Positions 43,644-51,590 are shown, counted from the first letter of the stretch. The stretch: 64,000 nt of DNA from Dimargaris cristalligena (GCA_003614675.1 ML002222.1:1-64000); one strand, 5' to 3'. Translations and numbers: made by a program. The notes: generated from the letters alone by a model not told the origin.

Positions 43644-44630
43644 AGGCGCGAGGGAGGGAATGCTGGAGGTGGGAGGGAGGGGGGATACTAAGCTAGCGGG
43701 AAGTGGTTTACTGCCGGCGGCGGATAAACGGTCGGGAAAGAGAAAGTTCTGAGATGTACCGGAGTGCTAAACTAATATACATGGCCAAATCGAGTCGATT
43801 AAAGACATCGATACCGCGGTGGTATACGGCTTCCGGTTGATTCGAATGGATTCGAGGCAAGAGACATTCCTCCCAACTACACCTGCAGTATTTCTCGAAT
43901 TCCCAAATAGGCACCCTAGTTTTTGCTCCATACCCTTCTGTAGTAGTTTCTGTTTTTGTTGCCTTAGTTGGTCTGTATATCGCCCTTGGGCTTACGATTC
44001 TACTACCCCCTATCCCTTGTAGAAGTACGACCAAAGCGAATGTGGTACCCCGAACCTTTTTCCTGTCCATCCGGGAATATCTTGGTGTAGCCCATAGTTG
44101 GTACGGATTAGCGCAAAAATAAATAAGTACACGAAAAGAAGCACGAGTCCGTCCATCGTCTCATTTCGGCTTTTACCCCTGCCACCGCTCTCTCTTTAGG
44201 TCGCACCGGAGTAATTCTACTATTAATTTAATTGGTGCAGTTCCCCGTTGCCTGCGTGGTCAAAGACAGTAGGAGTAGCCCCGTCCTAGGCTCCAACAAC
44301 AGCTCGCCTGCGCGATATACCTGTGAACAGATGCCAAGCCCTAATCGAAAAAAGTAGCCGAGGCTGAGTAGGCGAATGCCATTTACCCTTGGACCATCGG
44401 GTCACTAGGCAGCAACGGATGCTAAGTTCGAATGGGGGAATCCTTGCGCATTCTGGTTATCCAAAAATAGACAGGCGCATGCTACTGCCTCCGAAAGGCC
44501 CCAAGATATAATCGCTTAGATTTTAACGCGTATGGGGAAAGTGTGCTAGATGTATCCATCGCATAGTAGGCAAAATGCAAAGGTAAAATTACTTCCCTCC
44601 CCTCCCCACTCAGCCACCCCGTTCTTTTCT

Positions 44631-44638
44631 TATAAATA
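44631..44638 (+). promoter_or_regulatory. TATA box of secreted peptide gene A
   Basis: TATAAATA ~140 bp upstream of ATG 44779; the same motif occurs upstream of paralog C. Confidence 0.6.
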
Positions 44639-44778
44639 CCGAACTATTCGCCTTCCTTTCGGTTCTCATTATCCCAGCTTCACTTCCCGCTCTCTCACAC
44701 TCGCTCACTAAAGCCAGCCCAACTTGAACTCACCAACTTTCTCGCCCCCCCCTCCTCCTCCTCCTCCGGTATTTCACC

Positions 44779-45141
44779 ATGAAGCTCCTGGCCGCCCTTG
44801 CCCTTGTCCTGGCCACCATCGGCACCCTGAACGTGGCTCACGCTAACCCTGCCACCACTGAGGACCAGGCCGGCCACCAAACTCATCTGCAGAAGCGCTT
44901 CTTCCGCTCCAATGCGGCCAGATTGGGTGGTATGGTTGCCGGCGGCGTCGTGGGCTCAGTGGTTGGCCCCGTCGGTACTGTTGTCGGTGTGGGCGCTGGC
45001 CTGTATGCCACCAACAAGGCTATCAAGCATCGCCGTGAGAAGAAACAACGCAAAAAAGATGAAAAGATCGCAAAGAAGGCCGCCGAAAAGACCGCGAAGG
45101 AGGCCGAGAAGGCCGCGAAGAAGGCTGCCGAAAAAAAGTAA
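44779..45141 (+). CDS. Secreted prepropeptide A: signal + pro-region (LQKR) + glycine zipper + Lys/Ala/Glu-rich cationic tail
   Basis: MKLLAALALVLATIGTLNVAHA | NPATTEDQAGHQTHLQKR | FFRSNAARLGGMVAGGVVGSVVGPVGTVVGVGAGLYATNKAIKHRREKKQRKK...; biased codons, CACCATG start context. Confidence 0.88.
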   Translation: MKLLAALALVLATIGTLNVAHANPATTEDQAGHQTHLQKRFFRSNAARLGGMVAGGVVGSVVGPVGTVVGVGAGLYATNKAIKHRREKKQRKKDEKIAKKAAEKTAKEAEKAAKKAAEKK

Positions 45142-46827
45142 AATCCCGGTCCGGTATACCCCATAAATCAAGCTACCTACCAAATTATGCCATGGTTTCG
45201 TCCAATTGGCTATATTATTTCTTGATGCCTAGTAGTGCCATTCTATATTCCATGACATGCCTTTCTTTTGTAAAATTTTCGACTATGGATACTATTAGTG
45301 TTCCGCTCTTTTGAGCAATTCACCTCAGCACGAAGTTCAGCCCTGTATATTCCCCGATTTTCAGTTAGATTAAATAAAAATTGCGGCAGTTATTGTCGCT
45401 TTCGAAATCATTAAATATACGCCTAGCGTGTACCAATTTTATTTTGCTTGTTGAGTATAGCCAGCCTTTGATGTAGTGAACCTGGCTTGCTAAAATATAA
45501 CATATCCCTCGGAGCAAACTATCAGTACGAAGGTAGCATTGGTATAGGATGAACACAATGTGGCTGTCAGCGAATCCATTGGAGTTGTATTGTGTCGTTT
45601 GTGATTGCTGTCATATGCCCCATCCATAAGTCCGTAGCCGTATAGTCCAGAAACATAGTCAGTTCTGGCGATAATGGCCCATATTTACTGCAATTGATCG
45701 GATTTCTTGGTGGGTGCTCTTATATGTACGGTACTATTATATTCTGCACTGCTCAGCTACTCGAGGGCAGTACCAGAATCAGCTGAATAGATGCTAATAG
45801 GCATGGGATCTCCCTCTTTCAACTGTAGTTTGTTGACAATGGGGGAGAAGTGGTGCCACACGCACACATACATATATATATCTATATATTACTGCTAAGG
45901 CGCAAATTACTAACAAGATGTGGGTGAAGCAATGCAGGGATGTAGGCCAGTGGTTCCAAGAGGTAGTGTAACAGGAAATTATTAGGGACCCTGGATAACC
46001 AAACAGGGGTTGTTCGCATCACTTCAGAGACTGCCAATAATCACTAGGTAGCCCATCTAGCAATTGCCCCATCGGGAATCACATATCTACCAACATACCC
46101 AGGACTCGGGATTTATTAGTGGGGTTATGGCATGTGTCAGTATTAAACTAGAATGCCTTATTTCATGAAAAATTATGGACACTCATTGTCCCCCATCCTT
46201 TCTCACCCCCATAATATACTGTGTTTTGACTCCTTGATTACCAAAGGTCTTCTGCCCCTCTCAAATTAGTATTATTTTCAGTACTATTGTATATACATAG
46301 GTCCAACTACATCACATACCTTTATCGATATTCCTTCTCACTACCGCATATGGGCCCCAGCCGTATTTTCCGATGCTCTTGAGCACATCCAACACTTGTC
46401 GTCACTTTTGTACTCGACTCACAGCTTCCTCGTGGTCACCTACTAGTTGCTGGGTTGATATAGCTGTGACAGTGCCAAGCTTTTACTAAATGGCCCATTA
46501 TTTCTGAGCTACATCAGCCAGCTACTCTACAGCAAGTGCAACTGTAATTTACTGAACAATATTTATGCAACCACCTATTTAACGATTCTACCTCAAGTTT
46601 ACTTTTTAAACATAATTTGTTTGTAATTACTTCAATCATCCCTTATTATATATTTGCAAGTCCGCAACCTACATATAAGAGTCAATGGTTCACTTTTATG
46701 GAGCGACCTAGTTTTGGAATGGTGGACCAAGGCAAACTTTTCTAATCTTTTCATTTCCCCACTCAATAATTGATGGTCATACTGGATTTCCTTATGCCAA
46801 CCTGTTGGCAAGCCCCTATTTACATAT

Positions 46828-49433: not shown

Positions 49434-50397
49434 ATATTGAAGGATAGTTTATCACCAAATAATAAATTAGTGTGACCCCGGTCCAACTTGAAGTCTTGAC
49501 CAGTTCATGTATAATGCTGCGTGTTTTGCGATACGGTTGAATCCATATATCCGCCACGGTCCCGTATTTGACTGAAACAGTGGACATGGGGTGCTCATTA
49601 AACAGCTGGATTGTATTCAGGCCAGTGGAATACTGCAATGTACTAGGGCACACCGGGCTGAATATTTCAGTTGAGAATCGGATTTTATAAAACCATATTT
49701 TATGTATCTTCTCACCCATATATAATTGGGTCGAATATCGCCCATGTTCAATAGATTTGTGTATGCATATAGATATGCAAGCGAGGGTATTGCAAAATCA
49801 ACTTGCTGGTAATTACGGGCATGCATCTATAAACGACTCTCCGATACCCTCGTGTTCGACCCAGCGTGGTGCTTGCATTGGCTAGGCCGGCCATCCATGA
49901 ATATATAGCTGGATGATCAATGTCCGTTTATATTTTTTAAAGACAAAAAACGGGTTAACCAACCCAGCGGCGAGGTCGCTGATCTAAGGGGGCAAGAAGG
50001 TGCAGTGTACGGTTTTTCGTGGTTGGCGACTACCGCAGTTATACTCCCGCCTGCACTGCCCAATTAATGAAAAGGGCGAATTCACGGCCTATTCTATGAA
50101 GTCGACATCCCTTTAGCCAACCTATTTGGCTGTAACAAGGGTCGCTGGATAGCATGGTGTGTGGGGGGTTTGTACTGCGAGGGTCGTACGAGACAGGCCC
50201 AGCCACGCTGTAGAGCAAATTCTCGGGTCGATCAGATGGGGATTACTGTTTGGAAATAGATTTCCCGAATATGTTACTATTGAAGTGCGCCTCTTAATAG
50301 AGCTATACAGCCGTATTGAATACCACCCACAAGTAACCTGGCCATATGGTTTCAACCTTCTGCACCCAGATTCATCTACCATAGCCTCCCTTTTCCT

Positions 50398-50405
50398 TAT
50401 AAATA
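50398..50405 (+). promoter_or_regulatory. TATA box of secreted peptide gene C
   Basis: TATAAATA in the context TTTTCCTTATAAATAC, near-identical to gene A's TTTTCTTATAAATAC. Confidence 0.6.
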
Positions 50406-50579
50406 CTTCACCTTTTGCCCCCTTCTCTGACCCCAACCATATCCCCTACCTTCCCGCTTTATTCCACCATTCGCTGTAGTTTTACGGCTTTGTGATCCCC
50501 TTATTATATCCGAACTAGCCGAGTAGCCTGCACGACACTTGTCCTCCCCTCTCCTACGCAGTCTGTTGTCCACCCCGCC

Positions 50580-50972
50580 ATGAAGTTTTCGTCCTTCCTC
50601 GTCCTCACCCTCGTCCTGGCCACTCGCGGCACCGGGACCATGGTCCACGCTGGCCCTACCAACGACCCGAACCATGTCCCTGTTACTAACTTGAGCAAAC
50701 CCCCTGCCACCAGCCAGAGCAAACCCCCTGCCACCAACCAAAGCAGGCCCCCTCCGAAGGAAAAATATCGCAGTCCTCGTAGGAACTTAGGCAAGTACGC
50801 GATGGGTGGTTTTTTAGGCATATTTCTCGGCCCCGGTTTGGGCAATATCATCGGTGCTGCTGCTGGTATGGTCGCTACTCCCTTAACTGGCATGGGTTAC
50901 CGAAAGGCCAAACAAGTGCATCTTGATAAGCTCCAGAAAAAAAAAAGGCCAAGGCTAGTGAATAGTTGGTGA
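50580..50972 (+). CDS. Secreted prepropeptide C: signal + Pro-rich repeat pro-region (..SPRR) + glycine zipper + cationic tail
   Basis: MKFSSFLVLTLVLATRGTGTMVHA, SKPPATxQ repeats, RR|NLGKYAMGGFLGIFLGPGLGNIIGAAAGMVATPLTGMGYRKAKQVHLDKLQKKKRPR. Confidence 0.82.
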   Translation: MKFSSFLVLTLVLATRGTGTMVHAGPTNDPNHVPVTNLSKPPATSQSKPPATNQSRPPPKEKYRSPRRNLGKYAMGGFLGIFLGPGLGNIIGAAAGMVATPLTGMGYRKAKQVHLDKLQKKKRPRLVNSW

Positions 50973-51590
50973 AACACAGCTCGGTTTCTTCACTATTCGC
51001 TTGGTCGTCAGTCACTGCCATTTATTCCAAAATAATTTCACCCTCGTCTTCAGTTATTGCCAATGCCTCCGTTTCTCTACTGGCATTCTTTGTAAATATT
51101 GGTTTATTTATGAGCACATGTATCTATCTATCTTTTTATATAATTATATATGTATATAGATACGATAACACCTTGATTTTCACAACTGGCCACTATCTAT
51201 GCTTCCTGCTTCGCGGCACAATACCGGGAGAAGTGGTGTTTAATTTCCTGCTCCAAAGCTCAATAAAGTCTAACTCGGTACGGATAATATAATATACCTA
51301 ACCGCGCTTGAAATAGGTTGGTGGTCACACTGTTAGGTGCATTATTGGACTATTGTATAGAACCCCCAAAAGCTAAATAACTAAACAACATCGGACATTT
51401 AATATAATGTGGATTCTATATACACTACTCTAACAATTGTAGTAGTTAGTCTACCAAATTAGGCAGTCGGCCCATAGTGTCTGAAGGACACGTAGTCACC
51501 GCCTCACCCAAATACTGTAGAGCACAAAGCAGTCTGGAGTTAGAAACACGACCACAATTGCGCATTGGGAGTATCGCGCAGTAACTTGCA

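Follow-up and report, generated by a model that had tools for sequence, protein, structure and literature searches.

Candidalysin, a peptide toxin of Candida albicans, is freed from its signal-peptide-bearing precursor, Ece1p, by Kex2p cleavage at Lys-Arg (KR) followed by Kex1p trimming (PMC5784256), and it self-assembles and forms membrane pores, for which one glycine is required (PMC9522247). The Kex2-processed repeat proteins (KEPs) of fungal secretomes join a signal peptide to several near-identical peptide repeats separated by KR (PMC6339444). Among bacteria, CdzC and CdzD measure 84–86 amino acids with their leader, and Gly together with Ala, Val and Ile makes up 75% of the mature protein (PMC5380434), while the glycine-zipper motifs of TelE, and a zipper glycine in particular, are needed for membrane damage (PMC10434224); these bacterial toxins leave the producing cell and, in antagonism between microbes, damage the membranes of their targets (PMC5380434, PMC10434224). 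Here we describe a family of small precursor genes in the fungus Dimargaris cristalligena that shares some features with these systems, starting from three copies, A, B and C, in a stretch of 64,000 nucleotides (GCA_003614675.1, ML002222.1:1-64000; hereafter the window).

Precursors of amphibian antimicrobial peptides and conotoxins join a conserved prepro region to a divergent mature peptide, and an initial annotation of the window, made from the sequence alone, proposed a cluster of this layout, with three genes for secreted, Kex2-processed cationic peptides. In our analysis, two of the three copies are intact genes with paralogues elsewhere in the genome and the third is a pseudogene, and the part behind the dibasic site carries a conserved glycine-zipper segment followed by a polybasic tail. 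We tentatively propose that the intact genes encode exported, membrane-inserting peptides.

Genes A and C belong to a family of at least four intact genes

ORFs A and C are both present where the initial annotation had placed them. The three copies in the window are as follows:

44779..45141, + strand: gene A, an intact single-exon open reading frame (ORF) for a precursor of 120 amino acids (GC content at third codon positions, GC3, 0.69; 76% identical to the paralogue P0001)
50580..50972, + strand: gene C, an intact single-exon ORF for a precursor of 130 amino acids (tblastn; public gene model P0002)
48001..48254, − strand: relic B, whose ATG (48254–48252) is out of frame with the leader and pro-region frame (48246–48124)

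When A and C were used as tblastn queries against the whole 64-kb window, A matched the B locus across the leader and pro-region (24 of 38 residues identical, E 1.1e-11) and C from end to end (31% identity over 118 alignment columns, E 1.2e-7). No further match was better than E 0.15, which leaves three copies in the window and no more. They are true paralogues, similar far beyond chance and united by a signal-peptide-like leader, as had been claimed. In nucleotide alignments, B and C agree at 93% of positions in a 58-nt stretch of the leader, and a 124-nt stretch aligns A with B at 77% identity.

Further members lie outside the window. A database search with A returned one relative, P0001 (Dimargaris cristalligena H4R33_003139), at 76% identity, and an exhaustive phmmer search with C across 1.84 billion representatives returned P0002 together with P0003. 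The latter (829 amino acids, E 5e-7) was rejected as a relative: by eye, the match sets the Pro/Ser/Thr linker of C against the tandem repeats of P0003 and is one of low complexity. A profile search gave three significant matches, P0001 (E 3.5e-50), P0002 (E 6.1e-37) and P0004 (E 1.6e-21; H4R33_003280, 102 amino acids), all named Dimargaris cristalligena; the other 16 of its 19 matches with E ≤ 1 lay at E 0.079–1 and were insignificant. The sequencing runs that contain the window also contain a paralogous contig, which differs from A across the first 40 codons by six non-synonymous and four synonymous codon changes; the resulting six amino-acid differences match those of P0001 exactly. The deposited model of P0001 has a 35-residue N-terminal extension in place of the 'MK' start; since the paralogous contig has no listed difference at the ATG of A, this extension is probably an artefact of a model start placed too far upstream. 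The family that the initial annotation saw in the window is therefore a wider one, with P0001 and P0004 elsewhere in the genome; it counts no fewer than four intact genes, spread over three or more loci, and one pseudogene.

No relatives outside Dimargaris were found in the database searches, the profile search or the exhaustive phmmer search. A search for longer or fused forms yielded a single match, P0021 (990 amino acids), at E 0.04; a metagenome scan produced 376 pattern matches, none of them confirmed; and neither A nor C nor the B ORF had an exact entry in a collection of 15 billion proteins. The Atlas contains A and P0004 letter for letter and returned no feature matches. Run X6 (organism B, word share 0.12) yielded just brief exact stretches, at depth 2–5, besides copies of the repeat element described below. 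As far as these sequence searches extend, the distribution appears restricted, the family being known from Dimargaris cristalligena alone.

A conserved prepro region precedes a glycine zipper and a basic tail

The four intact members compared throughout (A, C, P0001 and P0004) are ORFs of 100–130 codons with the same five-part architecture, at 33–76% identity: a leader, a pro-region, a flank, a glycine-zipper segment and a basic tail. In gene A the main parts, with hydropathy given as the Kyte-Doolittle value over 19 residues (KD19), are:

44779..44844, + strand: signal-peptide-like leader, residues 1–22, ending A-H-A (hydrophobic N-terminus, KD19 1.91; helix at residues 3–21 in a low-confidence model)
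44845..44898, + strand: propeptide, residues 23–40, ending L-Q-K-R, a candidate kexin site (15/18 identical to P0001 and to P0004; kept in relic B)
44923..45009, + strand: glycine-zipper hydrophobic segment, residues 49–77, with central Pro64 (five GxxxG pairs; invariant Gly and Pro; 17/22 identical to the PF13488 region of the bacterial protein P0005)
45010..45138, + strand: polybasic Lys/Ala/Glu tail, residues 78–120 (partly an imperfect 21–24-nt tandem repeat; modelled as a helix)

In all four members the leader is hydrophobic and ends in (A/V)-H-A, with some positions invariant, and by the -3/-1 rule for signal peptidase sites A would be cut after A-H-A. In A, P0001, P0004 and relic B the pro-region spans 18 residues, the last four being L-Q-K-R. 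L-x-K-R is a classical kexin site, and an aliphatic P4 residue favours Kex2. Behind it lies a short aromatic/basic flank, which reads (F/W)-F-R-S in three members. The zipper segment, of 29–35 residues, consists of Gly and small hydrophobics (29–34% Gly; 54–76% Gly plus Ala, Val and Ile) with 4–5 GxxxG pairs and a central Pro, and six of its positions (G55, G59, P64, G66, G70 and G74 in A numbering) are invariant in all four members. Each precursor has one dibasic site ahead of the zipper, and the parts that follow this site are 80, 64, 62 and 62 residues long (A 80, C 62), contain 10–13 Gly each, end in a Lys/Arg-rich tail and carry net charges of +14, +10, +8 and +9. With +14 in A and +9 in C, the strongly cationic character ascribed to the mature parts is confirmed.

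Conservation falls along the precursor. Between A and P0004, 30 of 40 prepro residues are identical against 24 of 61 in the mature part (leader 15/22, pro-region 15/18, flank 4/9, zipper 13/28, tail 7/24), and the prepro region is the better conserved in all pairs among A, P0001 and P0004. The proposed contrast between conserved prepro and divergent mature regions is to this extent upheld, but the mature part is still alignable. A hypervariable payload, as the initial annotation had it, is contradicted by the alignment of the intact genes, which share the zipper segment and the polybasic tail. The dibasic site is kept as LQKR in A, B, P0001 and P0004, but not in C, as described below.

To assess the zipper spacing, each segment was shuffled. 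In C, a chain of six Gly at period 4 was reached in 0.26% of 20,000 shuffles (P 0.003); pair counts in the other members are taken up in the Discussion. The best 19-residue window of each segment has a summed biological hydrophobicity of +3.8 to +5.1 kcal/mol (a position-independent sum), which would be unfavourable for translocon-mediated integration. In A, tail residues 81–120 form a helix with block-mean predicted local distance difference test (pLDDT) values of 75–83 in an AlphaFold2 model, and an imperfect coding tandem repeat with a 21–24-nt unit (45061–45134) lengthens the tail. GC3 is 0.69 in A and 0.60 in C, near the 0.64–0.71 of the housekeeping genes of the window (intergenic GC 0.38–0.50), so the frames look coding.

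Gene C has a different linker and a separate dibasic site

In gene C the parts between leader and stop are arranged as follows:

50652..50783, + strand: Pro/Ser/Thr-rich linker, residues 25–68, ending R-R (24-nt tandem repeat, 2.5 copies, 50693–50753)
50784..50969, + strand: putative mature part, residues 69–130 (zipper with a central Gly-Pro and a period-4 run of six Gly; basic tail behind it)

The linker replaces the 18-residue pro-region of the other members. At the position aligned with LQKR, C has K-E, and R-R follows seven residues further on. The non-zipper parts of the A and C genes change length through repeat expansion.

The public model P0002 (H4R33_004355) equals C over residues 1–112 except for I90T and then runs into the downstream gene. 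In run X5, from a separate study, a T>C change at 50848 produces the same residue (Ile90Thr, within the zipper), and it is the sole difference between the X5 contigs and the window in about 2 kb around gene C; judged by sequence, P0002 corresponds to gene C of another isolate. Its model splices C across about 2.1 kb onto the ORF at 53054–53323. That ORF starts with an ATG and a leader of its own and ends in a C-terminal KDEL, and we read the fusion as an annotation artefact. The downstream ORF (53054–53323, + strand) encodes 89 amino acids, its leader is hydrophobic, and it has no Pfam match.

Copy B is a pseudogene

Copy B had been described as an intact peptide gene starting at 48254 on the − strand. 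From this ATG, the frame runs for 20 codons to a TGA at 48194–48192. The leader and pro-region lie in another frame, which has no ATG before an internal Met and ends at a TAA at 48003–48001; an ORF begun at the internal Met would be without a signal peptide. The flanks of B and C are also homologous, in inverted orientation:

48325..48466, − strand: 5' flank of B, homologous to the C 5' flank at 50365–50509 (81% and 82% in two aligned stretches)
47811..47910, − strand: 3' flank of B, homologous to the C 3' flank at 51044–51143 (72%)

In a pairwise alignment of B with C, flanks and leader are well kept and the middle is eroded; the TAA sits where the glycine zipper of C starts, and zipper and tail are gone. 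The ATG is separated from the leader core by 21 nt in A, by 27 nt in C and by 32 nt in B. We also considered whether a different start codon or an intron might restore B and rejected both, there being no in-frame ATG upstream of the leader and, by eye, no splice-like GT...AG in the 32-nt spacer. Contigs of runs X1 and X2 show no differences from the B sequence, and those of X5, from another study, show one substitution and no gaps. Since the B sequence recurs in contigs from two studies, it is not an assembly error of the window. B is therefore a pseudogene, with an out-of-frame ATG, a premature stop and the loss of zipper and tail, and not a third peptide gene. Its 'unalignable' payload, taken before as a divergent peptide, is an eroded remnant between flanks that still align to C, and reflects decay rather than diversification.

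The nearest resemblances are to bacterial glycine-zipper modules

No Pfam or NCBIfam model reaches its curated cut-off for the family members. For the glycine-zipper families PF13488 (Gly-zipper_Omp), PF13441 (Gly-zipper_YMGG) and PF05433 (Rick_17kDa_Anti), A and C are unlisted even at E ≤ 10; against PF13488, P0001 scores 11.0 bits (threshold 25) and P0004 is unlisted at E ≤ 1. Bacteriocin_IIc (PF10439) gives 14.7 bits with P0004, against a cut-off of 27.1, and A, C and P0001 are unlisted. The N-terminal part of PdsO, made up of signal peptide and zipper, is weakly matched by three of the four members (A 26.3 bits, cut-off 152.2). The A zipper is identical at 17 of 22 positions to the bacterial protein P0005, inside the PF13488 match of the latter, and the structure of A in the Atlas is similar to that of a bacterial YMGG/Gly-zipper cluster, with a template modelling (TM) score of 0.52. 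A profile search of the PDB returned nine matches at E ≤ 10, of which the best had E 0.16 and none was significant; HlyE, SlyB (E 2.4) and Tim22 are among them. The proposal that the family matches no characterised one is supported by the Pfam, NCBIfam, PDB profile and protein searches. The closest partial similarities are all with glycine-zipper modules that bacteria export.

Horizontal transfer from bacteria, which the 17/22 match to P0005 might suggest, was rejected as unsupported, given a database-wide E of 0.079 and the low-complexity composition of the match.

An AlphaFold2 model from a four-row alignment is poor (mean pLDDT 61.8; predicted TM score, pTM, 0.25). A homo-oligomer prediction with four copies of A residues 41–88 scored 0.02 against a mark of 0.32, a 'no answer' that is evidence neither way.

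A literature search for 'glycine zipper' together with 'Kex2' found no paper. No title among the papers found on secretion in Dimargaris points to the family, nor do the passages covered of PMC9866270 and PMC9391592 mention it.

Comparison with described systems

Like candidalysin and Ece1p, the family consists of fungal precursors with a signal peptide and KR-type dibasic processing (predicted here), and the product begins with a hydrophobic, glycine-containing part and ends with a cationic one. Ece1p differs in being a polyprotein with seven KR sites, whereas each precursor here would give one product; that product has no dibasic site bounding its C-terminus, is 62–80 residues long rather than 31, extends into a much longer basic tail and contains a genuine GxxxG array. 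No homology to Ece1 emerged among the database searches, all of which returned only Dimargaris proteins, a result that comes from these searches and not from a direct alignment to Ece1.

CdzC and CdzD, the class IIb bacteriocins and the type VII secretion system (T7SS) toxins TelE and EsxX resemble the family as small leader-bearing proteins or toxin domains with GxxxGxxxG arrays of Gly and small hydrophobics. At 54–76%, the Gly, Ala, Val and Ile content of the zippers comes close to the 75% of CdzC and CdzD (PMC5380434). These bacterial toxins use a double-glycine leader with type I secretion, or an LXG domain; the family, in contrast, is eukaryotic, has a Sec-type signal peptide with a kexin-type propeptide and a long polybasic tail, and has no immunity gene recognised nearby. 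The same contrast, of a double-glycine leader with a hydrophobic Sec-type signal peptide, separates it from Bacteriocin_IIc.

With PF13488, PF13441, PF05433, SlyB and the PdsO N-terminus, the family shares a near-identical local motif (17/22 to P0005) and the order of signal peptide, then zipper; the period-4 Gly array in small hydrophobics that marks the Pfam glycine-zipper families is present in all four members. Unlike the bacterial envelope proteins, however, it has no lipobox and no OmpA domain, and its scores lie under the cut-offs, so the similarity may be compositional convergence.

Compared with precursors of amphibian antimicrobial peptides and conotoxins, the family has the same conservation gradient, dibasic propeptide end and cationic product, but its mature architecture and key Gly and Pro are conserved and not hypervariable. 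Unlike KEPs, it has no repeated peptide unit bounded by dibasic sites, repeats occurring only in the C linker (24 nt) and the A tail (21–24 nt). The family would at most work like candidalysin and the bacterial glycine-zipper toxins and appears to be a member of neither group: the searches brought up no homology, the precursors are laid out differently, and the members fell short of all curated thresholds that were tested.

Genomic context

The cluster lies in a gene-poor stretch of lower GC (intergenic GC 0.38–0.50 against 0.54–0.59 for A and C) bounded by ordinary genes: an SNF2-type helicase gene that ends at 41040, and the KDEL ORF followed by a glutathione synthase exon from 53902. This exon (53902–54216, + strand) matches the ATP-binding domain of eukaryotic glutathione synthase (E 1.5e-18) and stops after 104 codons, which places intron-bearing genes directly beside the cluster.

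A TATA context that the initial annotation described as shared is represented by an exact 11-mer, present twice:

44629..44639, + strand: exact 11-mer CTTATAAATAC, TATA-like, a possible promoter element 150 nt upstream of the A ATG
50396..50406, + strand: the same exact 11-mer, 184 nt upstream of the C ATG

These are the only two exact copies in the 64-kb window, one ahead of A and one ahead of C. Relaxing the search to two mismatches gives 23 sites where 21.8 would be expected, which is chance level and leaves the exact pair as the one notable finding.

The MITE-like (miniature inverted-repeat transposable element) repeat noted near the cluster is a 145-nt element present as two direct copies, which are 81% identical (mean column identity 84% across the aligned 191-nt stretches):

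46824..46968: first copy
49294..49438: second copy

By eye, its ends carry short terminal inverted repeats (ATATGGG.GAA.TTC). In three runs its summed contig depth is about 150,000–300,000, against 135–460 in the flanks. A depth hundreds to about a thousand times that of the flanks, together with the inverted repeats, marks it as a very high-copy MITE-like repeat of the genome, in agreement with the initial annotation.

An Rfam scan of 41000–60000 gave no matches. A tandem array with a 100-nt unit (3.1 copies, 99% matches) lies at 43338–43643, to which neither an ORF nor an RNA family was assigned, and 6501–7985 on the − strand is a 494-aa open frame with weak F-box and leucine-rich-repeat matches, all under curated cut-offs.

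Discussion

Our preferred reading, to which we assign a probability of roughly 0.45, is that A, C and their paralogues encode cationic peptides that are processed by kexin, exported and inserted into membranes, in analogy to candidalysin and the bacterial glycine-zipper toxins. A precursor of 100–130 residues would enter the secretory pathway through the cleavable signal peptide that its leader suggests, and Golgi kexin would cut it at L-Q-K-R, or at R-R in C. The released product, 62–80 residues long and strongly cationic, would have an N-terminal half formed by the aromatic/basic flank and the glycine zipper with its central proline, and a C-terminal half forming a Lys-rich helix. Being too glycine-rich for the translocon to hold, the zipper would let the polypeptide be exported; it could then enter a membrane from the outer side, where a cationic flank at either end would hold it, and self-associate via its glycine faces, making the membrane leaky. 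The host fungus or competitors would be the likely target. We favour export and insertion from outside because the zipper has about 30% Gly and an invariant central Pro and because basic residues stand on both of its flanks. Export is further favoured by a conserved propeptide that precedes a would-be ectodomain of only about nine residues, as well as by the lineage restriction, the pseudogene and the repeat-driven length changes; the last three, with the dispersal of the paralogues, fit effector- or toxin-like genes.

Several observations weigh against this proposal. A polybasic cluster after a marginally hydrophobic segment is the classic stop-transfer arrangement, and its position directly behind the zipper makes retention in the membrane of the producer plausible. 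The KD19 maxima of the segments, 1.58–1.79, straddle the usual membrane-span threshold of 1.6. KR or RR occurs inside the tails of three of the four members and is, by eye, not avoided. The low-confidence model is one continuous helix over residues 35–119, with no hairpin, and a source has automatically named P0004 'Transmembrane protein'. Judged by the alignment, the dibasic RR of C is not homologous to the KR of A, P0001, P0004 and B, and none of the members tested reaches the threshold of a curated family. In the shuffling test, finally, the Gly pair counts gave P 0.07 (A), 0.13 (P0001) and 0.06 (P0004), so that spacing is clearly beyond composition in C alone; the invariant Gly and Pro positions speak more strongly for a zipper than the spacing statistics do.

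The marginally hydrophobic segment of 29–35 residues, overlooked in the initial annotation, makes a membrane-anchored protein a serious alternative. The genes would then encode small type I proteins residing in the membranes of the producing fungus, in which the signal peptide is cleaved, a short and possibly kexin-trimmed stub lies outside, the zipper forms a single stop-transfer span and the Lys-rich tail is cytosolic; their role would be cell-autonomous, for instance that of a regulatory or scaffolding subunit that oligomerises via GxxxG. Besides the KD19 maxima and the name given to P0004, the strongly basic segment right after the hydrophobic one agrees with this, fitting the positive-inside rule, and so does the continuous modelled helix, although at a mean pLDDT of 61.8 and a pTM of 0.25; KR and RR in the tails would be expected if the tails never meet kexin. 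A summed hydrophobicity of +3.8 to +5.1 kcal/mol is, however, poorly suited to a span, as are 29–34% Gly with an invariant central Pro, and Arg or Lys is found on the presumed outer side of the segment too. A cleavable leader plus LQKR propeptide would be uneconomical for an ectodomain of about 9 residues, and the propeptide, the most conserved part, would be cut off. SlyB/Pcp-type lipoproteins are Sec-exported glycine-zipper modules, and bacterial modules with the same motif are not known to be retained. On balance we hold membrane residence in the producer to be a realistic possibility, at less than even odds.

The polypeptides might instead be exported without being lytic and stay on the producer surface, where the zipper would drive aggregation or amyloid-like assembly and the basic tail would bind the anionic cell wall, serving adhesion or contact at the haustorial interface or a contact-only action like that of CdzC and CdzD. 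The composition resembles that of CdzC and CdzD, which aggregate on the surface of their producer (PMC5380434), the tails are highly basic and the organism is described as a mycoparasite (PMC9866270), but the long charged tails should oppose aggregation, and we consider this improbable. Least credible to us is that the family consists of young, lineage-specific ORFs without selected function, decaying along the path that B has taken. B is dead, no relative was found outside one species, and the first 40 codons of A and its paralogue differ by more non-synonymous than synonymous codon changes (six and four). Against this, four ORFs are still open and keep the five-part architecture and the invariant Gly and Pro at 33–76% identity, the GC3 of A equals that of housekeeping genes, and between two sequenced isolates gene C shows no more than one substitution.

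To our knowledge, almost nothing is known of the molecular weapons of early-diverging mycoparasites such as Dimargaris, and candidalysin is the sole fungal peptide toxin that our literature searches turned up. Taken one step beyond the proposal of exported, membrane-inserting peptides, this haustorial mycoparasite may make kexin-released glycine-zipper pore-forming peptides that permeabilise the membranes of its Mucorales host or of competitors at the contact zone. We put this forward as a speculation that is rather unlikely in its full form. If true, the family would be an independently arisen eukaryotic counterpart of the bacterial contact-dependent glycine-zipper toxins (Cdz, class IIb bacteriocins, TelE/EsxX) and a second, unrelated lineage of candidalysin-like fungal peptide toxins. 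Should the products be resident membrane proteins instead, they would form an ordinary orphan family. With four intact genes known and products that are short, the question is experimentally cheap. If the peptides are exported and membrane-active, the glycine-zipper toxin principle, documented so far in bacteria, would extend to a eukaryote via the kexin route, and the family would offer a defined candidate, open to chemical synthesis, for the means by which a haustorial mycoparasite breaks into its fungal host or manipulates it.

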